Assembly (NCBI GenBank): GCA_964365285.1
Contig: CAYIPF010000002.1
Span: 1-50,290, forward strand
Reading direction: 5' to 3'
DNA: 50,290 bases
Origin: an uncultured Candidatus Saccharibacteria bacterium
GTDB lineage: Bacteria > Patescibacteriota > Minisyncoccia > Sungbacterales > JBBTQR01
Shown here: positions 11,007 to 25,869 of the stretch, in pieces
Numbering within the stretch: the first letter of the stretch is position 1
Layout of the letters: every line of letters begins with the position of its first letter
Program-made: the position numbers and the translations under genes
Notes under the pieces: generated by a model
The model's input: the letters and a program-made list of their open reading frames with translations, nothing else
What the model was told of the DNA's origin: nothing
The model's database searches: none

Positions 11007-11016
11007 ATAATAACAC
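11007..11016 (-). promoter_or_regulatory. candidate extended -10 promoter (TGTTATTAT) for the paralog-2 operon
   Basis: Minus-strand GTGTTATTAT lies about 50 nt upstream of the ATG at 10955, just after the neuB terminator. Confidence 0.3.
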
Positions 11017-11038
11017 AAAAAAGAATGAAAATGTTTGT

Positions 11039-11086
11039 AAAAAATAAACGCCCTATTCTCATTTTGTCTCATTTTGAGAGGGCGTT
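11039..11086 (-). terminator. candidate terminator after neuB
   Basis: Stem AACGCCCT / AGGGCGTT (11047-11054 / 11079-11086), followed by TATTTTTT on the minus strand. The loop is long (24 nt) and contains CTCATTTTG twice. Confidence 0.5.
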
Positions 11087-11105: not shown

Positions 11106-12152
11106 TTACCTAAACATTTTCGGGGTAAGCTGAACATCTTTTGCGATATTTTGTGTTGCGCGCTTACCAAGAATCTTCGGAAATTGTTCGGCAAGTATTT
11201 TCCCCGTTCCCGGCCGCTTAACCCAAAGATTCTTCATCGTAAACTTCTCACCCCTTTTGACATCAGCGATGGTTACAACGGTTGCGTAGGCAAAATCAAT
11301 CGTCGGTTTCTCTTTCTTGAGAATCCTCTTCTCTCCTCCGCGTGCCTCCCAAATTGCGCGGGATCCAATAATCATATTACAAAGACCCGTTGGATCTAAA
11401 GAAATCTCAATATCGGGACCCGACCATTTCATATCGGAGGTGAAATGCTTTTCAAGAATACTCGCCCCAAGCGCGACAGCTCCGAGACATGTCCAAATCC
11501 CAAGCGAATGATCGCTCAATCCGAGAACGGCATCGGGAAATGCCTTCCTCATCTGCGCGATTGCCCCATACCGAACTTCTCTGTATGGAGTCGGATACAT
11601 TGAAGTACAGTGAAGAAGCGCGTAAGGCGTTTTATATGTATGAAAAATTTTAACGCTCTGTGCAATCGCCCGAATATCATTCATACCGGTACTCAAAATA
11701 ATCGGCTTTCCGAATTTCGCAATATGCTCGACAAGCGGATAGTTGTTGCATTCGCCGGATCCGATTTTATAAGCAACTACCCCGATCTTTTTAAGACGAT
11801 CTGCCGCTGCGCGAGAAAACGGAGTACAAAGATACATCATCCCCTTGCTCTCAACATAAGCCTTAAGCTCACGCTCCTCCGTCTCAGAAAAAGCGCACCG
11901 CGCCATAATATCCCAAATAGAAACATCGGCATTGCCTGGAACGATATTCCGTGCCACCGGAACCATCTCATCCTCAAGGATATGGGACTGAAATTTCGCA
12001 ATCTCACATCCCGCCACATGAGCATCGTCAATCATACGCTTTGCTTTTTTCATGCTTCCTTCATGATTGATGCCAATCTCGGCAATCACAAGGGGCGGAT
12101 AATCAACGCCTATTCTTCTTTTTCCAATCCGTATCTCGGGGTTTTTCTTCAC
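11106..12152 (-). CDS. neuB: N-acylneuraminate (nonulosonate) synthase, NeuB family with C-terminal SAF domain
   Basis: 348 aa. GTG start at 12150-12152 with GGAGGGG 7 nt upstream. PLVIAEIGINHEGSMKKAKRMID, ILSTGM, LHCTSMYPTP and GLSDHS motifs. The sugar specificity (Neu5Ac, legionaminic or pseudaminic acid) is not resolvable by eye. Confidence 0.85.
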   Translation of the reverse strand: MKKNPEIRIGKRRIGVDYPPLVIAEIGINHEGSMKKAKRMIDDAHVAGCEIAKFQSHILEDEMVPVARNIVPGNADVSIWDIMARCAFSETEERELKAYVESKGMMYLCTPFSRAAADRLKKIGVVAYKIGSGECNNYPLVEHIAKFGKPIILSTGMNDIRAIAQSVKIFHTYKTPYALLHCTSMYPTPYREVRYGAIAQMRKAFPDAVLGLSDHSLGIWTCLGAVALGASILEKHFTSDMKWSGPDIEISLDPTGLCNMIIGSRAIWEARGGEKRILKKEKPTIDFAYATVVTIADVKRGEKFTMKNLWVKRPGTGKILAEQFPKILGKRATQNIAKDVQLTPKMFR

Positions 12153-12219
12153 AGTATGGCCCCTCCATTCTTATATTAGCAACGAACTATGCTATGCGCC
12201 TTTCTATAACAACTTGATA

Positions 12220-12945
12220 CTACCTTTTTGTTTCAATGCCACACGCGACAACCTTTTCAGCCATACGCCAATCATCCATCGTGTTTATATCAAGTGCGTA
12301 TTTTTTATCCATAATATATGGTTTAACATTCTTTCCAAAAAAATTCGACTCTTTTTGGTCAAAAAGAAATTTTGTTTTAAAGAGATAGAGCGCGCATGTA
12401 TTCCAAAAAGCATTCGGTAAATCCTGCCGTCGCGATATCCTCTTACGCACCGGTCTACCACTCCAAAGCGTAAGCCATCCATTTTTATCAATTTTCATCG
12501 TCCGATCAGGGTTAAATTGTTCTGGAATTTCAGAAACTCCAAGCACTGAATCTGCGCCGCTGCGCTTAAGAAGCTTTACAGCTTCTTGTATATGAAAGGG
12601 CTGACGAAACGGTGATGTTGGCTGAAGAATCATAATATAATCAGCGCTATAATTTTCTATTTCTTTCAGATAGGAAACCGCATGCAAAAGAACCGGCAGA
12701 GTTGCGGTATCATCTTTCGCAAGCTCTTTTGGACGCATAAAGGGCACCTCCGCGCCGTATCTTCGTCCAACTTCAGCTATTTTCCGATCATCAGTTGAAA
12801 GAATTACGCGATCAAAAACACCCGACTTCAAAGCAGTTTCGATCGTATACGCAATGAGCGGCTTTCCTCCAAGCTTTTTTATATTTTTCCCCGGAATACC
12901 CTTTGAACCGCCGCGAGCGGTTATTATTCCCAAAAACTTAGTCAT
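12220..12945 (-). CDS. neuA: CMP-N-acylneuraminate (nonulosonate) cytidylyltransferase
   Basis: 241 aa. GIITARGGSKGIPGKNIKKLGGKPLIAYTI, LSTDD and ILQPTSPFR are classic CTP_transf_3 motifs. Confidence 0.85.
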   Translation of the reverse strand: MTKFLGIITARGGSKGIPGKNIKKLGGKPLIAYTIETALKSGVFDRVILSTDDRKIAEVGRRYGAEVPFMRPKELAKDDTATLPVLLHAVSYLKEIENYSADYIMILQPTSPFRQPFHIQEAVKLLKRSGADSVLGVSEIPEQFNPDRTMKIDKNGWLTLWSGRPVRKRISRRQDLPNAFWNTCALYLFKTKFLFDQKESNFFGKNVKPYIMDKKYALDINTMDDWRMAEKVVACGIETKR

Positions 12946-14137
12946 AGAATTTTTTTTGAGTATAGAGCCTCATTGTACGCAAAACTCGAGCAATGTTTTT
13001 TGCGGTCCGAGGTTTCCAATATATCCTTGAAGATTTGAATGGTCCGTGAGCGCATTGTTTTTTAACCGCTTTCTCTATCGCCTGTGCGTCACCTTCAATG
13101 ACATCTATGACATTTTCACCGCGCAACCTGCCGTTTTGCCGACTGCCCAAATTTACAACTGGCGTACCAAGATACGAACATTCTTTTATTCCTGAGGAAG
13201 AATTGCCGACAAGGCACGATGCGCGTTTCAAGAGGGCGATAAAATCTTCTGATTGAAGATTGGTTACAAAGCGAATGCCTTTTGTGGTACCGCCTTTATC
13301 CCGCTCGCGCAAATGCCTGATAGCCTCAGATATCTCTCCGGTACCGGCATCATTATTTGGCCAAAACCAAACCGCAGGTAACCCAATCCGGTGGATTGAA
13401 TCGGCAAGCGCCGTCACATAGCGCCAATTTTCTTCTTTGGTCTGTGTGATTACGGGATGATACATAACGACAATAAACGGCATTGAAATATCCAGATCAT
13501 CGCCCGCACCACGCGTCTTGAAAAAATCTGCCTGTAATTTTTTTTTCACTGCCGTGGCAACCTCTATATCGAGCGAACCAACATTGAAAACATACCTTGA
13601 ATCCTCGCCCATCTGTATCACTCTTTTTCTTGATTCTTCATTGGTAACAAAATGCGCGTGAGAAAGTTTTGTCACTGCATGACGAATACTCTCATCAACG
13701 CTCCCCGTTATATCGCCACCCTCTATATGAGCGATCATTGTATTCAAATATGCCGCGGTCATAGCAATGGGCAACTGTTCAAAACGATCCCCATTTACAA
13801 CAACGATATCGGGATTAAGCTTATATATAATATTCGCAAATTCTAATCCAATAAGGGCTGCGGTTTTAGCCATGGCGATGTGATTGCCGCCATCAACAAT
13901 ATGAAAAAGCGTCTCTTCCACGGGAAGTCCGGTCGAAACGATTTCAGCGTGTATATTTTGACTATATTTATCAAGTGGAATCGCCCCACCTAAAATGACC
14001 TGGAGCTCTACATCGGGCGCGCGTTGAAGTTCCGCCAAAAGAAGCTTCACTCGACCATAATAAGCGCGATTTGTTATCGGAAAGCAAATTTTTCTTTTCT
14101 TGATATTTTTTTTCATATGTATACTGCGCCGTGTCAT
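12938..14137 (-). CDS. neuC: UDP-N-acetylglucosamine 2-epimerase (hydrolysing), NeuC-like
   Basis: 399 aa. The ATG at 14137 forms an ATGA overlap with the upstream stop. HIEGGDITGSVDESIRHAVTKLSHAHFV and GNSSSGIKE motifs. Confidence 0.8.
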   Translation of the reverse strand: MTRRSIHMKKNIKKRKICFPITNRAYYGRVKLLLAELQRAPDVELQVILGGAIPLDKYSQNIHAEIVSTGLPVEETLFHIVDGGNHIAMAKTAALIGLEFANIIYKLNPDIVVVNGDRFEQLPIAMTAAYLNTMIAHIEGGDITGSVDESIRHAVTKLSHAHFVTNEESRKRVIQMGEDSRYVFNVGSLDIEVATAVKKKLQADFFKTRGAGDDLDISMPFIVVMYHPVITQTKEENWRYVTALADSIHRIGLPAVWFWPNNDAGTGEISEAIRHLRERDKGGTTKGIRFVTNLQSEDFIALLKRASCLVGNSSSGIKECSYLGTPVVNLGSRQNGRLRGENVIDVIEGDAQAIEKAVKKQCAHGPFKSSRIYWKPRTAKNIARVLRTMRLYTQKKFYD

Positions 14138-15513
14138 ACGAACCGAGCTTTTTGCTGCAAAAGCTCAACAATATGCTTTCCGATTCGTTCGCCCGATTTT
14201 CCATCCTGAAAAAAACACTGCTCCTTCGCGAGCAACGCCCGCGCTACCCCATCAACAGACGGATTGTTAAGATATTCGTTTACCGATGCAATAAGCCCAT
14301 CAACATTTTGAACCAATCGTATACCCCCAGTTGAAAGCGCCTCTTTATAATGCTCTTTGCCATAATAGAGAATTGGGGAGCGAGATAATTTAATGTTCTT
14401 TCGTATTAAAAAATTAATATTTATTATCGGCTTATCAAATACCGCCGCGTCAACCGAAATGCTCGATGCGTAGCATATAATCAATGACATATAATACAGC
14501 GTATCACTTAAATAGCGCAACTCTTCAAATGTCATATCCCAATCCGTTCCCTTTTTTGAAGAAAATCGCTTTCCCGGATAATCATACGCAAACTGAGGCC
14601 GTTTTGCTATTTCGCGTTCATCAACATAATCATTCGGCGGAATCCTGACCAAAATCGCAATATTTTTACCAAACTTGCCTTCGTCGTTTAAGCGCCCGAT
14701 ACAATCAAGCATATTCCAATCATCATCGCTGTATTGATTACCGAGTGGCGAATAGACAATGATTTTTTTCGTAAGATCAATATGAGCTTTTTTATAAAAT
14801 TCTTCCCGCGACATATACGGCGCTTGAAAATGATAATCATAATGCGGCACACCGCCAATAAAAATTTTTTCTGCGGGTATATCATGATGCGCTATAAGCG
14901 TTTTTTTTATTACATCATTAAAAACAATAAGTGTGTCGGGAACAAGACGAAGGACGCACCGTGCGCTCGCCCTATCCCATGAATTTATAAGCCCAACTGT
15001 CTTGATACCGCGCCGTAATGATTCGCGCAACATCGCACATTCACGCTCATCAAACAAATTTGCCATAAAAACTACATCCGGCTTATATTTTTCAAAAAAC
15101 GGACGAAATGTCGCGCTTCCGATAAAATTCAAATCTAAAAAACGAAAAAGTTTTATAAAAAATGGGCGCGCAAATAATCGATTAGCGATGCGACCAAGAT
15201 AATAAATACTGTGGCTCCCCCTGTCATCAAACGCCAATGTGCGTAAAAATTTTGTTGTTCCCGTGCGAAGAAGAATGAACTTTATATGCATGAACAACGC
15301 ATCAAGACCGCGAGGCGGAACAACTGGAACAACTTCATAAAAAATTCTTTCCCCTTCTCCGAATTCTGCCTTATGGTAATCGTAGCGTCCTTCATTCTTA
15401 AGAAAAAGCACCACACGAACATCCTCTTCCTTCATTATCGTTTTAATGATATCGGTACGCAGAATATTTTTTGATTCCACTCCCTCAAAAATCGTTATGA
15501 ATATCGTTTTCAT
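14134..15513 (-). CDS. TagB/TagF-like GT-B transferase, paralog 3
   Basis: 459 aa. MKTIFITIF, YKPDVVF, NSWDRA, GGVPHYD, KIIVYSPLG and DGKSGERI motifs. Confidence 0.65.
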   Translation of the reverse strand: MKTIFITIFEGVESKNILRTDIIKTIMKEEDVRVVLFLKNEGRYDYHKAEFGEGERIFYEVVPVVPPRGLDALFMHIKFILLRTGTTKFLRTLAFDDRGSHSIYYLGRIANRLFARPFFIKLFRFLDLNFIGSATFRPFFEKYKPDVVFMANLFDERECAMLRESLRRGIKTVGLINSWDRASARCVLRLVPDTLIVFNDVIKKTLIAHHDIPAEKIFIGGVPHYDYHFQAPYMSREEFYKKAHIDLTKKIIVYSPLGNQYSDDDWNMLDCIGRLNDEGKFGKNIAILVRIPPNDYVDEREIAKRPQFAYDYPGKRFSSKKGTDWDMTFEELRYLSDTLYYMSLIICYASSISVDAAVFDKPIININFLIRKNIKLSRSPILYYGKEHYKEALSTGGIRLVQNVDGLIASVNEYLNNPSVDGVARALLAKEQCFFQDGKSGERIGKHIVELLQQKARFV

Positions 15514-17441
15514 TGTATGTTCATTTCCTTGACAATTCGTTCAGCGAGAGACCGGGCGTCAAGTTCATGAAACGCAAGAATTTCAGGACCCCATCCGCAT
15601 TCTGGTATTTGAGAAAGCCCCATAAAAACAACGCGCGGATGTTCTGAGGAAATTTTTGCAAATTCAGACGCAAGGAAATTGCCAAAACCAAAACTAGTGT
15701 AGTGATCTTCAAGAATAAAAATTGTTTTATATGAAAAAAGCGTTTTAAGCCACCGTCTATCAGCGCGGTTAAGCCATGGCATATTTATAACAGCCAAAGA
15801 AAAATTTTTTTGTTTAAGGATTTCTGCCGCTTTCATCGCTTCCGTAAGCATAACGGGACCAAAAGAAATGAGTACAGCGTCACTTCCCTTTTTTAAAAAT
15901 GAACCGCGTCCAACGGCGAGTTGATGCCCGCTTGGAAGTTTATAGGGAAGGTTTTGAACAACATTTGAAAATCGTAAATAAGTGCTTTCTTTATTTTTAA
16001 AAATAGCAAAGCGGATAACCTGCCGCGCCTCTTCTTCGTTTGCGGGCTCCAAAAGAACAAGGCCCGGAATTGATCCGACGGCGGAAATATCTCGCACAGA
16101 TTGATGAGAATGACCCGGTCCGGAAGGCAAAATTCCCGACAATGTTGCGACATAAATTATTTTCTTTTTCTCTGTCGCGTTGTTGTACATTTGTTCGTTC
16201 CCACGAGCAGAAAGAAAGCTCGCATACGAATGAACGACAGGCACAAGCCCTTTAAGCGCCATGCCCCCCGCCGCTGAAACCATATCTTGCTCAGCAATAC
16301 CAAACTGAAAAAACCTTTTAGGAAATTTTTTCTTGAACGCCCCAATACCGCCGTCAAGCCATAAATCAGCGTCCAGAACAACGATATTTTTTCTTTTCTC
16401 CGCGATTGAAAGAAGTTCTTGCCCAAAAGCTTCTACTAATTTTTCAACAGGTCCATCAATAGTCGGACGCGACGGCAATTCAACTTCTTTAAGAACTAAT
16501 GTGGAAAGTTTTAGATTCTCAAGTTTTAGATTAATGGCGGTGACAAGTTCATGAACCGCACGGATATAATCATCGGTTTTTGGAGCGCCTGCATGAAAAT
16601 TATAAAATTCTTTATCAACAAATGCCGATGATTCCATGAAAGAAACCCCCTTCCCTTTAATCGTATCGGCAATCAAAACTTTCGGTTTATTTTTTATTTT
16701 TTTAAATTCGGAGAAAACTTTCGCAAGCGCTTTAAAATCGTGCCCGGAAACACGACGCGTTTCCCAACCAAAATCTTTAAACTTTGCTTCTATGTTGCCC
16801 AAGTCGCTCACATTTGTAACCCAATTATCAGACTGCATTTTATTTGCATCAATGATTGCGATGATTTCGCCAAATTTTCCATTTGCAATCGGCTGAAGCG
16901 CTTCCCAAATTTGCCCCTCCTGGAGCTCTCCGTCACCCAACATAACAAAAATTCTTCCGCCCGCGCCAAAATGACGATTTGAGATAGCCATCCCCTTTGC
17001 TTTAGAAAGCCCCATGCCAAGCGATCCGGAATTTGCCGCGATAAAAGGAGTCGCAATATCGGGATGACCAGGCAGTCCGTAAAGCCGTCGCAGTTTGTGA
17101 ATAAAATCAAATGGTAATTTTTCAAGACCGATAAGCGCCGAATATAACGCTGGCGCATCGTGTCCCTTTGATGAAAAATATGTGTCACTCCGCGTTTTCC
17201 CGGAATTAGGATTTTCAAGCTCGTTGAGCCACAACCAAAGCACGATATCCATCGAACTAAAACTTGATCCAATGTGACCGGAACCGGCCCGCGTAATCAT
17301 ATAAAGAGTGTTGAGCCGAAAAATATCAGCAAGAATTGTCGCTTTTTTGAATCGGTCTTTTACTTCCCGTCGCACGCGGCGAATTTCGGAAAGTGGCACT
17401 AAATAAAGTTTTCCTGACTGAAGTTGTTCAAATGTTTCCAT
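15510..17441 (-). CDS. transketolase-family ThDP enzyme, fused N- and C-terminal halves
   Basis: The track start at 17483 is a TTG inside the SDR gene, so I use the ATG at 17439-17441 (METFEQ). GSGHIGSSFSSMDIV, GDGELQEGQIWEA (ThDP/Mg motif) and FGIAEQDMVSAAGGMA (Pyr domain). Confidence 0.8.
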   Translation of the reverse strand: METFEQLQSGKLYLVPLSEIRRVRREVKDRFKKATILADIFRLNTLYMITRAGSGHIGSSFSSMDIVLWLWLNELENPNSGKTRSDTYFSSKGHDAPALYSALIGLEKLPFDFIHKLRRLYGLPGHPDIATPFIAANSGSLGMGLSKAKGMAISNRHFGAGGRIFVMLGDGELQEGQIWEALQPIANGKFGEIIAIIDANKMQSDNWVTNVSDLGNIEAKFKDFGWETRRVSGHDFKALAKVFSEFKKIKNKPKVLIADTIKGKGVSFMESSAFVDKEFYNFHAGAPKTDDYIRAVHELVTAINLKLENLKLSTLVLKEVELPSRPTIDGPVEKLVEAFGQELLSIAEKRKNIVVLDADLWLDGGIGAFKKKFPKRFFQFGIAEQDMVSAAGGMALKGLVPVVHSYASFLSARGNEQMYNNATEKKKIIYVATLSGILPSGPGHSHQSVRDISAVGSIPGLVLLEPANEEEARQVIRFAIFKNKESTYLRFSNVVQNLPYKLPSGHQLAVGRGSFLKKGSDAVLISFGPVMLTEAMKAAEILKQKNFSLAVINMPWLNRADRRWLKTLFSYKTIFILEDHYTSFGFGNFLASEFAKISSEHPRVVFMGLSQIPECGWGPEILAFHELDARSLAERIVKEMNIQ

Positions 17442-17457
17442 GGTATTGTCTCTAAAA

Positions 17458-18303
17458 TTAACGCGCCGTCCATCCGCCGTCAACGATCAGAACCGTACCC
17501 GTCACATACTCCGATGCCCGCGAAGCGAGAAAAAGAACCGCCCCATTATAATCCGTTGGTTTTGCCATTCTTCCAAGAATCGTTCTTTTTTCATATTCGC
17601 GAACAAATTCAGGATCAAGATCAGAAGTATACACACCCCCTGGAGCCAATGTATTTACTCTAATCCCAAAAGGTCCGGCATATTCAGAAAGCCATTTGGT
17701 AAAACCGATCATCGCTGATTTGGCAACGGTATACGACACCGGCTTATAATATTTTTCGCCCTTTCGCCTTCTGAATTCATAAAGCGATTGATCGGGAGAC
17801 ACAACCCCGTATGTGGAAGAAACATTTATAATACTGCCTTTCTTTTTCGCGCGGCGTAGTGCGCGAATAACCGCCTGTGAAACAAAAAAAGCGCTTTTCA
17901 TATGAGAATCAATCATTGTCTCCCACGCCTCGCTAGAATAATCTTCAAACGGCCCATCAATTAACATAGAACTATTCGGCATGGCGCCGAGTCCGGCATT
18001 ATTTACTAAAATCGTCGGTGTCCCAAATCTTTTTTCAACATTCAAAATAATTTCATCAACGGCGTTCTTATCCGTTAAATCAACGCGATATTCAAAAATC
18101 GGAAGCTTTTTCTTTTTCAACAAAGCAATTTTTTTACTACTCGATGTTTTTATGTCTAAAACAGCAACCTTGGCTCCAGCCCGAGCTAATGTTTCGGCAT
18201 ATTCACCGCCAAGCATTCCTTGTCCGCCTGTTACCACGGCAACCTCTCCCGACAAATCAAAAAAAATTTTCAAATCGCGCGTTTTTAATTTAATCTTTTT
18301 CAT
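17458..18303 (-). CDS. short-chain dehydrogenase/reductase (SDR)
   Basis: 281 aa. VAVVTGGQGMLGG (TGxxxGxG), NNAG, and YTVAKSA (YxxxK). Confidence 0.85.
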   Translation of the reverse strand: MKKIKLKTRDLKIFFDLSGEVAVVTGGQGMLGGEYAETLARAGAKVAVLDIKTSSSKKIALLKKKKLPIFEYRVDLTDKNAVDEIILNVEKRFGTPTILVNNAGLGAMPNSSMLIDGPFEDYSSEAWETMIDSHMKSAFFVSQAVIRALRRAKKKGSIINVSSTYGVVSPDQSLYEFRRRKGEKYYKPVSYTVAKSAMIGFTKWLSEYAGPFGIRVNTLAPGGVYTSDLDPEFVREYEKRTILGRMAKPTDYNGAVLFLASRASEYVTGTVLIVDGGWTAR

Positions 18304-18366
18304 AAAATAAATACATTAAACCTTATGCGCATAAAACCTGCTATAAAACAGCATATGATCTAATAT

Positions 18367-18376
18367 AGTATAACAG
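18367..18376 (-). promoter_or_regulatory. candidate extended -10 promoter (TGTTATACT) for the SDR-transketolase-neu operon
   Basis: Minus-strand CTGTTATACT lies between the ALDH terminator and the SDR start. No good -35 element. Confidence 0.3.
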
Positions 18377-18399
18377 AAAAATGCGATAAAAGGTTGCAT

Positions 18400-18448
18400 A
18401 AAAAAACCGTTCCACTGGATAGACAATTATGCCTATCCAGTGGAACGG
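18400..18448 (-). terminator. rho-independent terminator after the aldehyde dehydrogenase gene
   Basis: Perfect 16-bp stem CCGTTCCACTGGATAG / CTATCCAGTGGAACGG with a 10-nt loop, followed by T7 on the minus strand. It starts 3 nt after the stop codon. Confidence 0.85.
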
Positions 18449-18450
18449 AA

Positions 18451-19890
18451 TTATTGATAACTCACCTGCTTCCAATCGGCATAGAAATCCAAAGCCGCAC
18501 GCCCCGGCTCACGCCATCCGTCTCCAGATACCCCCATACCGCCAAACGACATATGAGATTCAGAACCGTGCGTTGGTCCATTGATACGGACAACGCCCGC
18601 CCTATATAAATTTTCAAACGCTCTTTGTCGTTTATAGTCCTGCGTACAAACAGCACCCGTAAGTTTATAAGCGGAATTATTCGCAAGTCGGACAGCATCA
18701 TCGAATGTTGTTGCGCGATACAAAACCGCAACAGGTCCAAATACTTCTTTGTGAGAAATCGGATCATTTTCCGGAACACCTTCCAAAACCGTTGGCGTAA
18801 GAAAATATCCGACTCCGTCGTTTAGGTTATATAAATTCGTCCCCCTCACCGCGACAACAGCCCCGCGCGAAACAGCGCCAAAGATATCCTGCTCGATTTC
18901 CACCAAACGCTTTTCGCTGATAATGGCGCCATAATTATCCGAATCAGCTGTGCCAACTTTTAATCCCCTTACAAGTTCAATAAACTTATTTTTGAATGTA
19001 TCATACACTCCGTCCATAACAATAATACGACTGGCGGCGGCGCACCTTTGCCCGCCGTCAATAAACGCCGATTGCACAGCAAGCTCCGCCGCGCGATCAA
19101 GATCGGCGTCATCACAAACAACAAATGGATTTTTTCCGCCACCTTCGGCAAGCATCTTCGCGTCCCGTTCAACGGCCTCTCTTCGAATGCGCTTTGCCGT
19201 AGCGGACGAACCGGTAAAACTGATAAATCGAACCCGTTGATCATGAACAAGCGGTAATCCAACTTCATTACCAAATCCCTGAATAACTGAAAAAACTCCC
19301 GCCGGCACGCCAGCATCCTTAAGAACCGTTGCAAACCATATCGGAACATACGGAGCATACTCGTGCGCCTTCAATACAACAGCGTTTCCGCATAAAAGAG
19401 CTGGAAACGATTTCCACGCAACTCCAGCGAGCGGATTATTGAAGGGCGTGATAAGCGCCCCAACTCCAATTGACTGGCGCACATAAAACACCCGCCTTCC
19501 GGGAACTCCGCTTTGCAAAATATATTCGCCGAGGTCTTTTCCGAGTTCAGAAATAAATCGCCCGCATTCAATTGTTGCCTCAACTTCTCCCCGCGCACTT
19601 TTTAAAGATTTCCCGCATTCCAACGCTACAATACCCGTCGCCTCATCTTTCCGCGCTTCAAGGAGCTCTGCCGCTTTACGAATAATCTTTCCCCGCTCAA
19701 CGGATGTCATTCGCGACCAGCCCTCATACGCGTATTCTGCCGATGTTATGGCGTCATTCACCGTTCGTTCATTCCCACGCTGAACATCTGCAAGTTTTTT
19801 ACCGGTTGAGGGATCGTTCTTTGTAAACACAGGAAAAGAATAAACACGCTCATTGTAAATCCAGTGCGGTATTGTCTCTGGATACTTCAT
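18451..19890 (-). CDS. NAD(P)-dependent aldehyde dehydrogenase
   Basis: 479 aa. FTGSSATAKRI, EGGGKNPFVV and GQRCAAASR (catalytic Cys region). GGGGG lies 6 nt upstream of the ATG. Confidence 0.85.
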   Translation of the reverse strand: MKYPETIPHWIYNERVYSFPVFTKNDPSTGKKLADVQRGNERTVNDAITSAEYAYEGWSRMTSVERGKIIRKAAELLEARKDEATGIVALECGKSLKSARGEVEATIECGRFISELGKDLGEYILQSGVPGRRVFYVRQSIGVGALITPFNNPLAGVAWKSFPALLCGNAVVLKAHEYAPYVPIWFATVLKDAGVPAGVFSVIQGFGNEVGLPLVHDQRVRFISFTGSSATAKRIRREAVERDAKMLAEGGGKNPFVVCDDADLDRAAELAVQSAFIDGGQRCAAASRIIVMDGVYDTFKNKFIELVRGLKVGTADSDNYGAIISEKRLVEIEQDIFGAVSRGAVVAVRGTNLYNLNDGVGYFLTPTVLEGVPENDPISHKEVFGPVAVLYRATTFDDAVRLANNSAYKLTGAVCTQDYKRQRAFENLYRAGVVRINGPTHGSESHMSFGGMGVSGDGWREPGRAALDFYADWKQVSYQ

Positions 19891-19926
19891 TATAAACCCC
19901 CATATTTTATGTTAATGAACACCCAA

Positions 19927-19954
19927 ATACTACACAAAAACTATATTTCGTCAA
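19927..19954 (-). promoter_or_regulatory. candidate sigma70-type promoter for the aldehyde dehydrogenase gene
   Basis: Minus strand TTGACG (19949-19954), 16-nt spacer, TAGTAT (19927-19932). Located between repeat R1 and the ATG at 19890. Confidence 0.4.
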
Positions 19955-19970
19955 CTCATCATGCACAAAT

Positions 19971-20127
19971 AATAAAGCTCCTCGGGGCAGAGCCCCGAGG
20001 TATCGTTGGGACTCGCTTCGCTCGTACAATCGTAGGCCGAAGGCAGACGGCATTGACCTTTGTTCCGCCGTCGCGTCGAGAAAATGTGCGCATACGCACA
20101 TTTTCCTCTCCGCTAGGCGTAATAAAA
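19971..20127 (-). repeat. R-family structured repeat, copy R1
   Basis: 157 nt, differing from R2 by 3 substitutions. Contains three hairpins, including GAAAATGTGCG-CATA-CGCACATTTTC (plus strand) and CCTCGGGG-CAGAG-CCCCGAGG. Lies between the stop of cytidylyltransferase 2 and the ALDH promoter. Confidence 0.9.
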
Positions 20128-20142
20128 TTAGCGGACACCTCC

Positions 20143-20910
20143 CTAAACTGGGTGTGTGGGATCGACGGGACCAGCGCCTTCTTTAAACTTCTCAATTAAT
20201 TTTTCGGCAATAAAAAAATCGATTGGCGAATCAATGTCAATCGCCCGTTCTTGAGGGATAATATGATAACGCACCCTATCACCGGTTAAAGAACTGGTAC
20301 TCGAAATCACTTCCGGACGAAAAGCGATAACATTTGCTCGAAAATAAACTTTTTCATAATTTTGTCTAGCGATCGGAGTTACATCCCTACCACTTTCTGT
20401 AAAATAAGAAACGAGATGCTTTCCGCCACTACCGTCATTGATCAGCTTCAATGCTTTATGTGGAATTTGCCGAGCTTCGGCAATTACTACGGCAGATTGA
20501 GCGTTTGGGTCCTTTAAAAGCTCTTCTATGCAGGCGTCAATATCAACAACGCTCTGCAATGGCGCAGTAGCCAGCAAACGAACAACCATATCGGGCTTAT
20601 AACCATCATTTTTATACAACCACTCAATCATGTGTTTCACATATTCAAATTCAGGAGAGCCGTCTGATGCCAATTCTTTTGGCCTTAGATATGGCACTTC
20701 AGCCCCAAATTGTCTTGCAACAATAGCGTACTCTTCAATGTCGGTGGAAACAACGAGCCGATTAATATATTTTGATTCACGAGCCGCATCCAAAATCCAG
20801 CCGACAAGAGGTTTTCCGGCTAATGGTTTAATGTTTTTATGGTGCACCCCCTTAGAGCCGGAACGAACACCGACAATTCCCAAAATCTTTAAATTGGATG
20901 TATCTTTCAT
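20143..20910 (-). CDS. acylneuraminate-type cytidylyltransferase, second copy (CTP_transf_3 family)
   Basis: 255 aa. GIVGVRSGSKGVHHKNIKPLAGKPLVGWIL, VSTD, LLATAPLQ. Confidence 0.75.
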   Translation of the reverse strand: MKDTSNLKILGIVGVRSGSKGVHHKNIKPLAGKPLVGWILDAARESKYINRLVVSTDIEEYAIVARQFGAEVPYLRPKELASDGSPEFEYVKHMIEWLYKNDGYKPDMVVRLLATAPLQSVVDIDACIEELLKDPNAQSAVVIAEARQIPHKALKLINDGSGGKHLVSYFTESGRDVTPIARQNYEKVYFRANVIAFRPEVISSTSSLTGDRVRYHIIPQERAIDIDSPIDFFIAEKLIEKFKEGAGPVDPTHPV

Positions 20911-20928
20911 GCGCTGTATATCCTTGTG

Positions 20929-21846
20929 TTATCTGACATATTTTAATGATTTATAAATCCCCTCAATCGTTGGACAAGCAATTCCATGTTTTTTAGCGCA
21001 ACGAAGAATCGCACCAGGAATTGCCTCCAATTCAGAATCTAATCCACTTGCAATATCTCTTTGAAGAGATGTGGTTAAGTTATCCGCGAATGAATAGATT
21101 AATTTAATCGTCTCATCAAAATCCAAATGTACGCCTTCTTTTTTAGCAACCATTACCCCCTCATACGCACAGTCCTCTAATTTTTTGCGCCATTCTTTAT
21201 TTTTTTTAGCGAAACCCAATGGCTGATTGGTCGCCGCGGTAACACACGCAACAGCATTCAGTCGTACGAGCTTTCTCCAGATTACATCTTTTTCATTGTC
21301 TAGAATTTTTGTATTAATTCCGATTGCCATGAGCATATCACAAACTTTTTGCAATGCCTGATGAGATACATCATCAGAAGCAATTTCTACTTCTGGCGCA
21401 CCGGAAGAAACATGGATTATCTCATTCGCTAAATCTTTTTTTGCCTCTGTTTTACCAATCATGCCAACGACCACCCTCCTTCCCAATTGTTTGCGCAACA
21501 AATCTATGTGCTCAAAACCATTAAGAAGCGGAACAACGATTGAATGTTCAATCAAGTGCCGCGGTATTGAATCTAGGGCTCGCGACAGATCGCCTGCTTT
21601 AGTGGTAATACATAAAATATCGGGCTTAAAATCCAACCGCGAAACGAACCGTGGTCCAGCGATAAAATCTCCAAAGACTTGGCTTCTAAGACGCAGACCG
21701 CTTTTATTTAAATCCTTAATGGTATTGGGTCTTACTATACACAATACAGAAAAACCGCTTTTCCAAAAAAGACACGCTAACAATCCGCCAATTCCGCCAA
21801 CACCCAGAATGGCAATAGAAAGATTATTTTGGCCACGGATGGTCAT
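20929..21846 (-). CDS. 2-dehydropantoate 2-reductase (PanE/ApbA)-family oxidoreductase
   Basis: 305 aa. N-terminal IAILGVGGIGGLLACLF Rossmann motif, with length and layout typical of the ApbA family. Confidence 0.6.
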   Translation of the reverse strand: MTIRGQNNLSIAILGVGGIGGLLACLFWKSGFSVLCIVRPNTIKDLNKSGLRLRSQVFGDFIAGPRFVSRLDFKPDILCITTKAGDLSRALDSIPRHLIEHSIVVPLLNGFEHIDLLRKQLGRRVVVGMIGKTEAKKDLANEIIHVSSGAPEVEIASDDVSHQALQKVCDMLMAIGINTKILDNEKDVIWRKLVRLNAVACVTAATNQPLGFAKKNKEWRKKLEDCAYEGVMVAKKEGVHLDFDETIKLIYSFADNLTTSLQRDIASGLDSELEAIPGAILRCAKKHGIACPTIEGIYKSLKYVR

Positions 21847-22999
21847 GAATTACTTTTTCATTAATTTCTGTTCCCCATCCTAATCCGGAAGGAAGCTCCA
21901 GAAAGCCGTCTGTAACCTTTGGAGAATTTGTAAACAGCTCATCTCTCCATGGGACATCGTCAACATCAAGCTCCATCATTCGCAAGTTTGGAGTCACGGC
22001 GCAAAATTGGGCGCTGATGAAAGTAGAAAGATGACCATTATAATTATGAGGCGTAATATTTACTTCATAAAGCTCTGCCAAATCAGCAATTTTTTTTGAC
22101 TGCGCAAAACCATTCCAAATAATATCAATGCTGGCGATATCCATTGCGTGTCTTTCAAAATAAGGACGGTATTGCCGCGAACCATAAAGATTTTCACAAG
22201 AGGCAATCGGGGTCTTTATTGACTGTTTAATCTGTAGAAGCGCTTCCGGATCATAAGAATCAATTTCCAACCAAAGTAAATTATATTTTTCAAGCATCCG
22301 ACCAATTTTAATATATCCTTCGGTTTTAAAATTAAAGTTCAAATCCAAAATAATATCTATGTCATTACCGACCGCTTCACGCAATGCGCCAACCCACGCA
22401 TCAACAGCGGCTAATATTGACCTATCCGCGTTTAATTCGGGTCCGCCAGCGCTTTTAAAAAATCCGGGCATATACACAATTGGATTGTCTCCCAAAATCC
22501 CAATATTGGTTTTCACGATTTTATAACCACTCGCTAAAATTTCTTTGCCAAATTTTTTAACATCGTCAAAAGATTCAATGTGCGGCTTATTAATCATGTG
22601 CCACGCTCTCACCCGCGAAGTTCCGCAATGCGACCAATACACTGGAATCTTTTCCCGAATCGGACCGCCAAAAAGCTCGCATACCGATATGCCCAATGCT
22701 TTGGATTTAATATCCAATAAGGAATTTTCAATCCCACCAATTGCTTTTTGAATAACACTGCCTGGACTTTGACGAGTTCGGGAATACATTTCCCAATACA
22801 ATTTTTCTGTCAGACGCGGATCTTGACCGATGAGCAACGGAGCGAGATCTTTTATAACGCCCTCCATCCCAAGCGGAGAACCGTTTGAATCAGTGCATTC
22901 ACTCCACCCTATTAATCCCTCGTCGGTTGAAATTTTAATAAAGGTCCATGGACGCCAACCGGCATCACAATGCAGGGTTTTAATATTAGTAATTTTCAT
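21824..22999 (-). CDS. enolase-superfamily (mandelate racemase/muconate lactonizing) sugar-acid dehydratase-like
   Basis: 391 aa. MKITNIKT...WTFIKISTDEGLIGWSE capping domain, AIGGIENSLLDIKSKALGISVCELFGG, WLEID. ATGA overlap with the upstream gene. Confidence 0.7.
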   Translation of the reverse strand: MKITNIKTLHCDAGWRPWTFIKISTDEGLIGWSECTDSNGSPLGMEGVIKDLAPLLIGQDPRLTEKLYWEMYSRTRQSPGSVIQKAIGGIENSLLDIKSKALGISVCELFGGPIREKIPVYWSHCGTSRVRAWHMINKPHIESFDDVKKFGKEILASGYKIVKTNIGILGDNPIVYMPGFFKSAGGPELNADRSILAAVDAWVGALREAVGNDIDIILDLNFNFKTEGYIKIGRMLEKYNLLWLEIDSYDPEALLQIKQSIKTPIASCENLYGSRQYRPYFERHAMDIASIDIIWNGFAQSKKIADLAELYEVNITPHNYNGHLSTFISAQFCAVTPNLRMMELDVDDVPWRDELFTNSPKVTDGFLELPSGLGWGTEINEKVIHDHPWPK

Positions 23000-24084
23000 G
23001 CTTCAAGAATTATGTGATCATTCGTAAGAACCGTATCTGCCAAAATATCTTTTTTTGCTTTTTTTCCAATAACTTGAGGAAGCATTCTCGGCTTTAATCC
23101 ATATCCGGGACTCTTGCATGTAAGCATATCCGCGCGTATCAATGCGCCCGCCGGAATATCAATTTTTGCGACTAAACTTTTACTATGCTTATTCCGAGTT
23201 GCCATTTCTTCTTCAAATAAATACTTTCCAGGCGTCCCTAAAGCCACCTCGATTCTTTTTGCGCCATGCACCATTTTTGTGAATTGCTCAGGATCAACGC
23301 TAACAGTGGCGTGATCCGGCCCGGGCAAATTTTTGTCTAAGGTAAAATGCCGCTCAATGCATTTCGCTCCCAAAGTAACGGCCGCGAGCGTGGGGCTATA
23401 ATCTCTTTCGTGACCAGAATATCCAATCGGCAACGGACTATAACGCTCTTTTAAAAATGGGATGGTCAAAAGGCTCAATCTCTCGTCAACCGACGGATAC
23501 ACCGAAACGCAATGCAAAATAATCAATTGTTTATTATAGCGCAGAATTGTTTCTACAGCGCTATCCAATTCCTCCAATGAAGTCATACCAGTTGATAAAA
23601 TAACAGGCTTTCCTTTTTGAGCGACATACTCTAAAAGCGGAAGATTCGTAGTATCAAAAGAGGCGATTTTATAAAGATCAACCCCAACCTTCTCCAAAAA
23701 ATCAACGCTCTTTTTATCAAAAGGGGTTGCAAAAAATATCGTACCCAGCTCCTGAGAAACGCTTTTTAGCTTTACAAACTCTTCAAAATCCAATTCCAAA
23801 GCTTGCCGATATTCACCATAGGTTTTTCCCAAAACCTGGTCTTTGGTTTGTAGTTTTTCTCGGAGTTCCTTCGCAAACACTTCTTCAATAAATCTTTTCT
23901 GAAATTTTACCGCATCAGCGCCGGATTTTACCGCTTCCTCCATAGTTTTTTTCGCCAAAAAATAATCTCCATTGTGATTATTGCCGATTTCCGCGATAAA
24001 AAAAGCTGGATCTCCTTCGCCGATATATTTATTATTGCCAACCGCGATACGATTAGGCAAATTTTTGTATTTCTTTAAAAACAT
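22996..24084 (-). CDS. NeuB-family ulosonic-acid synthase, second copy (with SAF domain)
   Basis: The true start is probably the ATG at 24082-24084 (MFLKKYKNLPNR...). The track's 411-aa version reads through repeat R2. FFIAEIGNNHNGD, ILSTGM, LHCVSVYPS and GYSGHE motifs. Confidence 0.8.
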   Translation of the reverse strand: MFLKKYKNLPNRIAVGNNKYIGEGDPAFFIAEIGNNHNGDYFLAKKTMEEAVKSGADAVKFQKRFIEEVFAKELREKLQTKDQVLGKTYGEYRQALELDFEEFVKLKSVSQELGTIFFATPFDKKSVDFLEKVGVDLYKIASFDTTNLPLLEYVAQKGKPVILSTGMTSLEELDSAVETILRYNKQLIILHCVSVYPSVDERLSLLTIPFLKERYSPLPIGYSGHERDYSPTLAAVTLGAKCIERHFTLDKNLPGPDHATVSVDPEQFTKMVHGAKRIEVALGTPGKYLFEEEMATRNKHSKSLVAKIDIPAGALIRADMLTCKSPGYGLKPRMLPQVIGKKAKKDILADTVLTNDHIILEA

Positions 24085-24100
24085 AACGCATAAAGACTTT

Positions 24101-24257
24101 AATAAAGCTCCTCGGAGCAGAGCCCCGATGTATCGTTGGGACTCGCTTCGCTCGTACAATCGTAGGCCGAAGGCAGACGGTATTGACCTTTGTTCCGCCG
24201 TCGCGTCGAGAAAATGTGCGCATACGCACATTTTCCTCTCCGCTAGGCGTAATAAAA
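24101..24257 (-). repeat. R-family structured repeat, copy R2
   Basis: 154/157 identical to R1 and in the same orientation. It ends 17 nt upstream of the NeuB-2 ATG at 24084. Confidence 0.9.
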
Positions 24258-24519: not shown

Positions 24520-25869
24520 TTATGCGATTAAAGCAAGTACCGCGCGCGCAATTCGTTCCCCCGCTTTGCCGTCGCGAAAATTACAATATACCCGACGAAA
24601 ACATTCCTGACCTTCAGCGTCAAGCGCTGGATTTTTAAGCCGTTTTTCAATCGCTTTTAAAAATTCGTCGCTTGATCTTGGAAGTTTGCCCGCGCCACAC
24701 GCAATAAACGGCAAAAAGTGACTGTAATCATATCGATGTTCGCCTTCCAGATATTTTCGTTTATATGGATGAAACGCGCCGGTTAATACAATGGGCTTAT
24801 TAAAAAATGCCGCGTCCAAAACGATTGTCGAGGGACCGCACACGACAAGATCGCTATAATAAATCCCGTGCATTAAATTGTCATCGTCCTTATCTCCCAA
24901 TTCCTGATCATCAATCTTTGAATCAAAAAAAGAAACTCCAGGCCGATCAAAACGCATATTGGGATACGGCTTCACTCCATCAAGGGCGCTAACCTTAACC
25001 GTCGGAGAAAATCGCACAATAATATTTACATCGAGAGAACTTAAAAGTTTCAAAACATATGGATCGGTTGTGTTATTTGGAATGTATACATCGCCAATGA
25101 CCGTACAAAAAATAAGTTTTTTTTCAATCGGCAAATCGTATAATGCAAAAAATTCTTCGCGAGAGATTTTTGGCCCTTTTGCGTATTTATCATAATGGGA
25201 AATTCCAACAACCTCAACGCGCTCCGCGGGAACATCATTAATTTTTATTGCCTGCTCCTTTACACGCGCACTCGGCGCCAAAAGTTTATCTGGAACAACG
25301 CGAAGGATGCCGTGCGTTGTAAGATTATCCCACGAACGGACCATTCCGATGCTTGGGATTTTGAAATATCGAGCATTGTGCGCAAGTTCAACATCGCGTT
25401 CATTTTGAATATCGGTAATAAGCACGACATCCGGCTTATAACGCACAAAATATTCCGAAAAACGATATGGAGCGGCAACGCGAAAATCAATCGCACGCAT
25501 AATCGTACGCAGTAAACGAATGTTTGTAAAAAACTTTGCAATAATTGTCGCAAAAATAAAATAAAAAAACTTTCCTTCTCGTTCCAATTTAATGCGGCGC
25601 TCAATAGAAACCGAATGCGAATCAAGTCCAAACTTTGCCAAACGCTTCATGACAAGCGAAAAAAACTTTTTTGAAGGCGGGGGAAGCTGAATTCCTTCAA
25701 TAATAACATTTGAATGTCCAAATTTTTTTTGAAAATAATCCTTCTTATACTCAAAAGTAAAAAGCACAATGCGAACATTGGGCTCGGCAACAAGTATTGA
25801 AAACGCGTCAGTTGCTAATATGTTTCTGGAAATATATGGATGGAAACTTGAAATAAAAATCGTTTTCAT
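24520..25869 (-). CDS. TagB/TagF-like GT-B transferase, paralog 4
   Basis: 449 aa. MKTIFISSF, YKPDVVL, RSWDNL, VGISHYD, KLIFCTVIG and DGKAGERI motifs. Confidence 0.65.
   Translation of the reverse strand: MKTIFISSFHPYISRNILATDAFSILVAEPNVRIVLFTFEYKKDYFQKKFGHSNVIIEGIQLPPPSKKFFSLVMKRLAKFGLDSHSVSIERRIKLEREGKFFYFIFATIIAKFFTNIRLLRTIMRAIDFRVAAPYRFSEYFVRYKPDVVLITDIQNERDVELAHNARYFKIPSIGMVRSWDNLTTHGILRVVPDKLLAPSARVKEQAIKINDVPAERVEVVGISHYDKYAKGPKISREEFFALYDLPIEKKLIFCTVIGDVYIPNNTTDPYVLKLLSSLDVNIIVRFSPTVKVSALDGVKPYPNMRFDRPGVSFFDSKIDDQELGDKDDDNLMHGIYYSDLVVCGPSTIVLDAAFFNKPIVLTGAFHPYKRKYLEGEHRYDYSHFLPFIACGAGKLPRSSDEFLKAIEKRLKNPALDAEGQECFRRVYCNFRDGKAGERIARAVLALIA

Follow-up and report, generated by a model that had tools for sequence, protein, structure and literature searches.

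Ulosonic acids activated with cytidine monophosphate (CMP), among them sialic, legionaminic and pseudaminic acid, 3-deoxy-D-manno-octulosonic acid (Kdo) and 2-keto-3-deoxy-D-glycero-D-galacto-nononic acid (Kdn), are central to microbial surface recognition, and the known logic of their biosynthesis is narrow. The Kdn pathway consists of a Kdn-9-phosphate synthase, a phosphatase and a CMP-Kdn synthetase (BT1714/BT1713 in Bacteroides thetaiotaomicron). Here, we analyzed a gene module from an uncultured Candidatus Saccharibacteria bacterium that combines a NeuB-like, phosphoenolpyruvate (PEP)-dependent synthase (NeuB2) with an enolase-superfamily enzyme (MR/MLE), an ApbA/PanE-family 2-ketoacid reductase (ApbA), a cytidylyltransferase (CTP2), an aldehyde dehydrogenase (ALDH), a short-chain dehydrogenase (SDR) and a transketolase (TK). 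The module lies on contig CAYIPF010000002.1 of assembly GCA_964365285.1, all 50,290 nucleotides of which were studied and are referred to as the window (Table 1). The genome, which is of the candidate phyla radiation (CPR) type, comprises 831 kb and is 98% complete. We conclude that the module appears to represent a conserved, undescribed pathway for a CMP-activated acidic sugar, and this conclusion stands much firmer than the mechanism that we propose for it below.

Relation to described pathways

Among described systems the Kdn pathway comes closest, and next to it ranks the CMP-N-acetylneuraminic acid (CMP-Neu5Ac) set present in the same window. With Kdn synthesis the module shares PEP condensation by a NeuB-family enzyme without amino-sugar enzymes, activation by a CTP_transf_3 protein and, in most orthologous modules, a probable phosphatase of the YrbI/KdsC family next to the synthase. 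However, the genome of the window lacks this phosphatase, and the SDR, TK, ALDH, MR/MLE and ketoacid reductase of the module have no Kdn counterpart. The NeuC/NeuB/NeuA route to CMP-Neu5Ac resembles the module in the synthase fold with its SAF domain and in the cytidylyltransferase family. In contrast to that route the module has no hydrolysing 2-epimerase, and NeuB2 is 31% identical to the canonical NeuB1 of the window, falls below the equivalog cut-off and carries Asp and Ser at the positions of Glu134 and Arg314 of Neisseria meningitidis NeuB (NmNeuB). No Epimerase_2 gene was found in the conserved module of other phyla, and the NeuC of the window pairs with NeuA1 and NeuB1. The pseudaminic acid pathway, which includes PseB, PseC, PseH and PseG, is set apart by PseI and PseF cut-offs that the module proteins do not reach and by an aminotransferase, an acetyltransferase and a 4,6-dehydratase that the module does not encode. 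As to the Kdo pathway, KdsB models score far below cut-off and the synthase of the module is of the NeuB type, not of the KdsA type. We regard the module as a variant of the CMP-ulosonic acid pathways that shares their synthase fold, their cytidylyltransferase family and, in other carriers, their phosphatase family, and that possesses five added enzymes.

An original prediction, made from the sequence of the window alone, had stated that no characterized nonulosonate, Kdo or Kdn pathway is known to employ such an enzyme combination. In agreement with this, no description of the gene set was found in the published literature on the enzyme combination, on ulosaric acids, on nonulosonic acids together with transketolase or on nonulosonic acids in Patescibacteria, the PDB codes of the MR/MLE relatives led to no pertinent paper, and no curated equivalog model claimed any module member. 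Enolase-superfamily enzymes, PanE-type reductases and transketolases devoid of a phosphate pocket are, to our knowledge, part of no characterized sugar-nucleotide pathway.

The product class that we predict as a module intermediate is represented by 3-deoxy-D-lyxo-hept-2-ulosaric acid (Dha) of plant rhamnogalacturonan-II, the sole glycan-borne ulosaric acid that we know of, barring a few reports from bacteria. The predicted end product of the module differs from Dha in being additionally deoxygenated; the biosynthesis and nucleotide form of Dha were still listed as unknown in a 2025 review (PMC12168206), which leaves no genes for a comparison. The same classes of SDR, transketolase and ALDH occur in an experimentally validated route to tartrate, in which gluconate 5-dehydrogenase, a Gno-type SDR, forms 5-keto-D-gluconate, transketolase cleavage yields tartaric semialdehyde and an ALDH-family dehydrogenase of the succinate-semialdehyde type leads on to tartrate (PMC13527115). 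As predicted for the module, the terminal two carbons are thereby taken off an acid sugar and a carboxylate is left. Unlike the module with its dedicated pocket-less TK clade in a sugar-nucleotide operon, the tartrate route relies on ordinary transketolases that act promiscuously on free hexonate.

Gene content and conservation of the module

The five genes listed in the original prediction, NeuB2, MR/MLE, ApbA, CTP2 and ALDH, were borne out at their coordinates and in their families. All are intact and co-oriented, with Pfam matches far over the cut-offs for NeuB2 (NeuB, 260.8 bits; SAF, 43.1 bits), MR/MLE (MR_MLE_C, 140.8 bits; MR_MLE_N, 57.6 bits), ApbA (ApbA, 81.4 bits; ApbA_C, 71.2 bits), CTP2 (CTP_transf_3, 79.9 bits) and ALDH (Aldedh, 437.6 bits). 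The SDR matched adh_short_C2 with 152 bits, and the catalytic motifs are intact in all module members. The three junctions from NeuB2 to CTP2 either overlap, by 4 nt between NeuB2 and MR/MLE and by 23 nt between MR/MLE and ApbA, or leave a gap of less than 20 nt. A canonical neuC-neuA-neuB set does accompany this second set, which lacks a NeuC-type epimerase here and in the orthologous loci. ALDH follows straight after the other four genes, as had been noted, but the set does not end there, since SDR and TK co-occur with these genes in other phyla. The original prediction therefore needs to be extended: the module in the window also takes in SDR and TK and probably the adjoining GT-B protein as a candidate transferase. 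Likewise missed had been the KdsC-type phosphatase of most non-CPR versions and the division of the module into two separable parts.

For the analysis of gene neighborhoods, 80 genome and 80 metagenome loci encoding MR/MLE relatives were fetched and their open reading frames (ORFs) labelled by BLASTP against the proteins of the window. The 156 non-redundant public loci comprised 53 with orthologues (at least 56% identical to the MR/MLE of the window) and 103 with paralogues (below 56%); the denominators given here are the loci with enough flank to score the respective neighbor. A 2-ketoacid reductase was encoded immediately downstream of MR/MLE in 38/40 orthologous versus 2/88 paralogous loci, and a cytidylyltransferase within 10 kb in 24/27 versus 1/61. 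Near the orthologues we found NeuB or an aldolase in 16 of 18 loci, a HAD protein in 11, ALDH and transketolase in nine each and SDR in eight, while each of these neighbors was missing from all 54 paralogous loci. The co-occurrence counts across phyla and domains contradict the fortuitous juxtaposition that the original prediction had allowed for.

The MR/MLE of the window has more than 100 cluster representatives in public data at 66-80% identity. The enzyme is 60-80% identical across phyla and about 60% in archaea, CTP2 identities over the span of CPR bacteria to Proteobacteria mostly amount to 54-73%, and orthologues in module loci are 36-56% identical for ALDH and 41-54% for SDR. Carriers include Wolfe-, Harrison-, Giovannoni- and Sungiibacteria, Paceibacterota, Polaromonas, Pseudothioglobus, Nitrospira, Omnitrophota, two Hadarchaeota and a Deltaproteobacteria metagenome-assembled genome (MAG). 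Dozens of loci, from Patescibacteria lineages and Pseudomonadota to Hadarchaeota, co-carry the genes, and the stop codon of one often overlaps the start codon of the next. In the first three contexts that we viewed, a Pseudothioglobus genome, a 410-kb metagenome contig and the Deltaproteobacteria MAG, the genes for NeuB, a KdsC-like HAD protein, SDR, ALDH, transketolase, MR/MLE, ApbA, a CTP_transf_3 protein and a protein of about 450 aa adjoin each other. The order NeuB-HAD-SDR-ALDH-(TK)-MR/MLE-ApbA-CTP recurs in Pseudothioglobus, the Deltaproteobacteria MAG, Polaromonas and Omnitrophota. The order of the window, NeuB2-MR/MLE-ApbA-CTP-ALDH-SDR-TK, is repeated in loci L114 and L124, and locus L021 has the interleaved order CTP / NeuB-SDR-MR/MLE-ApbA-ALDH-TK. 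Interleaved loci possess a single synthase and a single cytidylyltransferase each. Of 400 further genomes sampled from the phylum of the window, none contained a module orthologue; the module is rare and patchy, and its spread was probably horizontal. On the 410-kb contig (L005, ERZ25039504), the transketolase at 16550-18439 is broken into several short frames in an otherwise complete module, which may be due to decay or to an assembly error.

Paralogues of the clade of PDB entry 2OO6, which are 51-55% identical to the MR/MLE of the window (L022-L087, L134-L173), are common in Dehalococcoidia, Latescibacterota and Poribacteria. Unlike the module enzymes they have no module neighbors: their contexts are heterogeneous (Ham1, DM13, PhyH, GFO/IDH/MocA, nitrilase and others) and too varied to provide hints on the substrate.

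Residues and subfamily assignment of the module enzymes

In NmNeuB, Arg314 of the SAF domain contacts the N-acetyl group of N-acetylmannosamine (ManNAc) and is essential, together with Glu134. All 27 module-linked NeuB proteins have Asp at the Glu134 position and a residue other than Arg (S, I, C or N) at the Arg314 position although they are mutually just 35-69% identical, whereas Glu and Arg stand at these positions in the canonical NeuB proteins aligned with them. The metal and PEP residues of NmNeuB (His215, His236, Lys53, Lys129, Glu25 and Asp247) are retained in NeuB2 and its orthologues. NeuB2 stays below the equivalog cut-offs for NeuB (TIGR03569, 313.6 vs. 399.65) and PseI (258.9 vs. 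340.25), and NeuB1 of the canonical set aligns with NmNeuB at 416 bits and keeps Arg314. The exchanges at the two positions in all module NeuB proteins indicate that the substrate of NeuB2 is not ManNAc. The HAD protein of the orthologous modules probably belongs to the YrbI/KdsC family of ulosonate-phosphate phosphatases (TIGR01670: 115.5 in L006 and 95.5 in L004 vs. a cut-off of 106.95; Kdn-9-phosphate phosphatase equivalog: 93 vs. 180) and adjoins NeuB in 11 of the 18 well-flanked loci. The phosphatase is missing beside the NeuB proteins closest to NeuB2 (54-69% identity) and accompanies the remaining ones, L102 being the one exception.

The TK of the module aligns best with short, human-type transketolases. 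Its catalytic and thiamine diphosphate residues (human H37, H77, H110, H258 and E366) are kept in all eight module transketolases compared, and it retains the equivalent of yeast His481. The phosphate-binding residues R318, S345, H416 and R474 of the human enzyme and D424, an Asp that recognizes the hydroxyl group of the acceptor, are changed: V, D, L, P and N stand in place of R318, S345, H416, D424 and R474, respectively. R318, H416, D424 and R474 are non-canonical in 8/8 module transketolases, and S345 is still Ser in two Hadarchaeota copies. The genome encodes a separate housekeeping transketolase on contig C24 (5371-8407) as an N-terminal and a C-terminal gene that flank a 190-aa ORF; this split enzyme keeps S, H, D and R, the R318 region lying outside that alignment. 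These residues mark the module TK as a distinct transketolase clade with a predicted non-phosphorylated substrate.

MR/MLE matched none of the named dehydratase models (GalD, ManD, gluconate/galactonate, AraD, TalrD/GalrD and RhamD): the best equivalog, GalD, reached 160 against a cut-off of 311 and all others were far below theirs. The enzyme shares the fold and, by spacing, the metal ligands and a His-Asp dyad with GalD, ManD and GlucD relatives and with 2OO6/3GO2/3SN0/3SN1/3SN4 (Burkholderia xenovorans); 2OO6, which has no assigned function, matched with 381 bits. Across 16 orthologues, K163, D219, N221, E245, E269, H318 and E343 never vary and D292 almost never does. The mandelate racemase subgroup has three acidic metal ligands at the ends of barrel strands 3-5, a His-Asp dyad on strands 7 and 6 and a Lys at strand 2. 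Putative metal ligands D219, E245 and E269, a His318-Asp292 dyad and K163 place MR/MLE in this subgroup by alignment and spacing, not by structure. In contrast to the named acid-sugar dehydratases, it has Asn instead of His past the first metal ligand, and the general-acid His of GalD and ManD occupies just this position, two residues past that ligand, of the invariant Asn221.

The reductase exceeded the cut-off of TIGR00745, a model at the subfamily level (168.4 vs. 141.35), and remained below those of all equivalog models; it is a member of the ApbA/PanE fold family, not of the pantothenate function. CTP2 contains the N-terminal nucleotide-binding motif R-x-G-S-K-G-x-x-x-K-N (VRSGSKGVHHKN). 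Its best equivalog was PseF (114.9 vs. 205.7), and KdsB models gave 24-41 bits against cut-offs of 155-255. The conservation of CTP2 across phyla suggests one defined substrate. ALDH has the catalytic Cys (GGQRC) and Glu (AEGGGK), and its best NCBIfam models, 2,5-dioxovalerate and alpha-ketoglutarate-semialdehyde dehydrogenase, were both below cut-off and not decisive.

A proposed pathway

We tentatively propose, as a reading that falls a little short of being probable, that the genes from 15510 to 24084, and probably to 14134, constitute one route to a CMP-activated acidic sugar other than Neu5Ac, pseudaminic acid, legionaminic acid, Kdo or Kdn. The mechanism given here is a possibility that we would likewise put somewhat below an even bet; it is based on gene anatomy and established enzyme chemistry, from which its substrates, order of steps and product are predicted. 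Enolase-superfamily enzymes begin with the removal of an alpha-proton beside a carboxylate and need the carboxylate, an alpha-hydrogen and a beta-leaving group. As the NeuB product lacks an alpha-hydrogen at C2, which has to remain a ketone if CMP activation is to follow, MR/MLE and the reductase need a second carboxylate. Its obvious source is ALDH, which in turn needs an aldehyde. Transketolase cleavage of a -CO-CH2OH donor yields an aldehyde, and an SDR can create this end from a -CHOH-CH2OH tail, hence the proposed order SDR, TK, ALDH. The carboxylate of the NeuB product itself is not a possible substrate for the dehydratase, which, at variance with the original prediction, probably does not make the 2-keto-3-deoxy end.

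NeuB2 would join PEP and a non-phosphorylated, non-N-acetylated aldose to a Kdn-like 3-deoxy-2-ulosonic acid, of which the SDR would oxidize the penultimate side-chain carbon to give a terminal -CO-CH2OH. The TK without phosphate pocket would accept this ketol donor and take off the last two carbons, and ALDH would convert the resulting aldehyde into the second carboxylate of a 3-deoxy-2-ulosaric acid, seven-carbon and Dha-like if the start was a nine-carbon acid. MR/MLE would then take the proton alpha to the new carboxylate with elimination of the beta-hydroxyl, and ApbA would reduce the resulting 2-keto group, the net effect being a deoxygenation beside the distal carboxylate. Finally, CTP2 would activate the anomeric C2 hydroxyl to the CMP-sugar, which the TagF-like GT-B protein would move onto a surface glycan. 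From a nonulosonic acid, a CMP-activated 3,5-dideoxy-hept-2-ulosaric-type acid would be formed. According to our derivation, a C6 and C7 stereochemistry of the Kdn type would satisfy the 3S,4R configuration that transketolases require of their donors. This explanation agrees with the guess, in the original prediction, of a keto-deoxy acid that is CMP-activated and either modified or of shorter chain. We consider it possible, if rather unlikely in this specific form, that a nucleotide-activated ulosaric, i.e., dicarboxylic, sugar has its first pathway in this module, in which a dedicated transketolase trims a Kdn-like sugar and MR/MLE and a reductase deoxygenate it, yielding CMP-3,5-dideoxy-hept-2-ulosaric acid or a close relative on the surfaces of CPR, marine and groundwater bacteria and Hadarchaeota. 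The TK step could then be the enzymatic equivalent of periodate trimming, which we offer with the same considerable reserve. If true, a dicarboxylic ulosaric product would be a new class of activated sugar, functions would be found for the 2OO6-like structural-genomics orphan clade and for a new transketolase clade, and the trimming half would provide a testable template and candidate model for the Dha pathway.

Variant loci

The gene set consists of two separable sub-modules, X and Y. Sub-module X, with NeuB, HAD, SDR, TK, ALDH and a cytidylyltransferase, is found in the proteobacterial genome G434 and partly in G608, and neither of the two contains an MR/MLE homologue. Since NeuB with a phosphatase is the sole carbon-chain builder there, the trio of SDR, TK and ALDH most simply acts after condensation, and the existence of X on its own with a KdsC-type phosphatase, together with the recurring order NeuB-HAD-SDR-ALDH, favors trimming at this stage. 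Sub-module Y consists of synthase, MR/MLE, ketoacid reductase and CTP2 and is present in several loci without the trio. The window, L114, L124 and L021 combine the trio of X with Y around one non-canonical synthase and one CTP2. In a Wolfebacteria genome, trio genes (module-type TK and ALDH) lie 20 kb off on the same contig.

In Harrisonbacteria, a 2-Hacid_dh protein occupies the slot of the reductase and an HpcH-type aldolase-like gene (weak Pfam hit) that of NeuB, and two KpsC/KpsS-type (Capsule_synth) transferases follow the module. Judged from the families involved, these non-orthologous replacements would preserve the chemistry and support a scheme in which a 4-hydroxy-2-ketoacid is made and dehydrated, a 2-keto acid reduced and the product CMP-activated. 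This variant module stands on a Harrisonbacteria-type contig (L092, ERZ4903125; 4270-13588 and 17543-20489), which besides the HpcH/HpaI aldolase-like gene (weak Pfam hit), 2-Hacid_dh enzymes and the two transferases encodes a putative cyclase, two cupins and a fusion of a KdsC-like HAD with an EamA-like membrane domain.

In three metagenome loci (L108, L110 and L111) that have just the core NeuB-HAD-MR/MLE-ApbA-CTP2, an NAD-dependent epimerase is found with two dehydrogenases of the UDPG_MGDP_dh family (376 and 425 aa) in two arrangements, which may be an alternative route to the carboxylate. Other genes near Y-only loci encode small cupins, an APH-like kinase and EamA transporters, none of them convincing as a carboxylate source. 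We dropped EamA transporters as precursor importers in core-only loci, as EamA also follows the cytidylyltransferase of an unrelated set on contig C5 of the same genome. The small cupins were considered as oxidative, C-C cleaving substitutes for the trio and rejected, since a NeuB-cupin fusion on C5 and a weak match to mannose-6-phosphate isomerase make a sugar isomerase likelier.

Evaluation of alternative explanations

Several observations weigh against a single trimming and deoxygenating route. About half of the well-flanked orthologous loci lack SDR, TK and ALDH within 10 kb, neither TK nor ALDH of the module type occurs at all in four CPR assemblies, and loci with and without the trio are interspersed in the MR/MLE tree. 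No source of the second carboxylate is apparent in Y-only loci, which weakens the case for MR/MLE acting on the ALDH product. With Asn221 in place of the acid His, MR/MLE could be an epimerase instead of a dehydratase. SDR scores for gluconate 5-dehydrogenase (157 bits) and FabG (154 bits) do not separate the subfamilies, and the PDB sequence matches of SDR and ALDH are generic, not diagnostic. No KdsC-type phosphatase was found in the window's genome, and the chain length and stereochemistry assumed above are guesses. Within the window, the two repeats and the terminator between them break the set up into three transcription units, and as SDR and TK share their transcript with neuC-neuA-neuB, it could be Neu5Ac that the trio serves.

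The last points lead to the rival that we take most seriously while still holding it to be unlikely, namely two independent pathways in which NeuB2-MR/MLE-ApbA-CTP2 work alone and ALDH, SDR and TK trim the Neu5Ac made by the neuC-neuB-neuA set. The four-gene cassette would then start from an aldehyde-acid supplied from elsewhere, for instance free hexuronate, and lead to a nine-carbon 3,7-dideoxy-ulosaric acid. This would account for core-only loci, including the four genomes without module TK or ALDH, for the occurrence of the trimming trio elsewhere without MR/MLE, for repeats that bracket exactly the four-gene cassette, for the strong terminator after ALDH, for the tight packing of SDR-TK-GT-neuC-neuA-neuB and for the two UDPG_MGDP_dh-family genes beside three core-only loci. 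However, the closest relatives with the same genes (L114, L124 and L021) have the trio and no neuC or canonical neuB nearby, L021 interleaves SDR and ALDH with MR/MLE-ApbA around a single synthase, and CTP2 and MR/MLE are equally conserved with or without the trio, which argues for one product. Core-only loci would also be explicable by an aldehyde-acid from elsewhere if the trio acted before condensation, ALDH converting a hexose to hexonate, SDR this to 5-keto-hexonate and TK the latter to a four-carbon aldehyde-acid, tetruronate, which NeuB2 would condense with PEP to a heptulosaric acid for deoxygenation by MR/MLE and ApbA. The order ALDH, SDR, TK in the window fits such a sequence, and its steps from 5-keto-gluconate via transketolase to a semialdehyde have been validated experimentally (PMC13527115). 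We nevertheless judge it quite improbable: most non-CPR modules pair NeuB with a KdsC-family phosphatase, followed by SDR-ALDH, which points to a phosphorylated, neutral NeuB substrate, and ALDH would have to spare the very tetruronate aldehyde that NeuB requires.

Acid-sugar dehydratases of the mandelate racemase subgroup make 2-keto-3-deoxy acids. MR/MLE might accordingly dehydrate an aldonic acid to such a compound, as the original prediction suggested, or epimerize its substrate, and this product might be the one that is CMP-activated, with NeuB2 serving another purpose. MR/MLE, reductase and CTP2 are the most invariant and most conserved triad, and the Asn in place of the usual acid His is also compatible with this possibility, to which we give little credence. 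The adjacent 2-ketoacid reductase, replaceable by 2-Hacid_dh, would destroy the keto group that cytidylyltransferases of this family need, and a NeuB or aldolase stands beside the triad in 16 of the 18 well-flanked loci, with one cytidylyltransferase only. There is hardly any room left for a chance juxtaposition or for a role of dehydratase, reductase, ALDH and TK in central or catabolic acid-sugar metabolism. It is from catabolism or from the synthesis of cofactors that each of these families is best known, and the 2OO6-like MR/MLE paralogues do stand in unrelated, mixed contexts; yet the co-occurrence counts contradict this explanation, the surrounding 40 kb are entirely devoted to glycan biosynthesis and a separate housekeeping transketolase is kept. 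Moreover, neither PanB and PanC nor 2-keto-3-deoxy-6-phosphogluconate aldolase or an aldolase of the dihydrodipicolinate synthase type were found in the 98%-complete genome. Without PanB and PanC the ApbA homologue does not serve pantothenate synthesis, and without the two aldolases a 2-keto-3-deoxy acid has no way into catabolism. Pantothenate and catabolic roles were rejected on these grounds, and the missing partner genes contradict an action of dehydratase and reductase in unrelated central metabolism, the case that the original prediction had named against itself.

Genomic setting

Nearly all genes from about 4.7 to 38 kb lie on the minus strand and belong to glycan synthesis, including about 10 GT4/GT2 glycosyltransferases, a PMT_2-type protein, a GDP-mannose 4,6-dehydratase and methyltransferases. 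The direct repeats R1 and R2 are 98% identical, and each ends in a GC-rich hairpin (8-9 bp in R1) just upstream of a gene start, that of ALDH and that of NeuB2, respectively. The NeuB2 start at 24084 had been called correctly. A longer ORF begins at 24231 inside R2, with an ATG that is also present in R1, where no gene follows, and that produces a spurious 49-codon N-terminal extension.

Table 1. Positions of the module genes and of associated features in the window
Feature	Position	Strand	Remarks
NeuB2, PEP-dependent ulosonate synthase	22996..24084	-	362 aa; NeuB TIM barrel + SAF domain
MR/MLE, enolase-superfamily enzyme (mandelate racemase subgroup), probably acid-sugar dehydratase	21824..22999	-	MR_MLE_N + MR_MLE_C
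ApbA/PanE-family 2-ketoacid reductase	20929..21846	-	ApbA + ApbA_C
CTP2, CMP-ulosonate synthetase-type cytidylyltransferase, in no named subfamily	20143..20910	-	CTP_transf_3
ALDH, NAD(P)-dependent aldehyde dehydrogenase	18451..19890	-	Aldedh
SDR, classical short-chain dehydrogenase	17458..18303	-	adh_short_C2
TK, fused transketolase-family thiamine diphosphate enzyme, second transketolase of the genome	15510..17483	-	Transketolase_N, _pyr, _C
TagF-like GT-B protein, candidate transferase for the module sugar	14134..15513	-	weak Glyphos_transf and BFO_1060_trans matches
Canonical neuC-neuA-neuB (CMP-Neu5Ac) set	11106..14137	-	same operon as SDR-TK-GT; context, outside the conserved module
Repeat R1	19970..20127	-	158 nt; 15 nt past the CTP2 stop, 80 nt short of the ALDH start
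Repeat R2	24100..24257	-	158-nt direct repeat; end 16 nt upstream of the NeuB2 start codon
Intrinsic-terminator-like hairpin, strong	18407..18448	-	19-bp stem + T run, directly 3' of ALDH

The window encodes four TagF-like GT-B paralogues (8101-9525, 9540-11072, 14134-15513 and 24520-25869) that are mutually 27-29% identical, and a fifth is located on contig C5. A TagF-family protein of 440-470 aa also follows the module in L006, L008, L009, L017, L020, L021 and L114, and it is from gene position that we infer a transferase function. An AlphaFold model of the protein encoded at 14134-15513 had a predicted local distance difference test score (pLDDT) of 86 and a generic GT-B fold, with template modelling scores of just ~0.55 against UDP-GlcNAc 2-epimerases, MshA and TarL/TagF. 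As far as the model indicates, none of the solved structures is a close relative of this GT-B family.

A third ulosonic-acid-like gene set occupies positions 1-10000 of contig C5 (L184) and comprises the TagF-like paralogue (459 aa), a methyltransferase, the NeuB-cupin fusion (514 aa, no SAF domain), a GFO/IDH/MocA oxidoreductase, a CTP_transf_3 protein, EamA and a Wzy_C/TPR protein. The genome thus holds three synthase/cytidylyltransferase pairs and five related transferases within 831 kb, which suggests that acid sugars on the cell surface are of great importance to the way of life of CPR bacteria.

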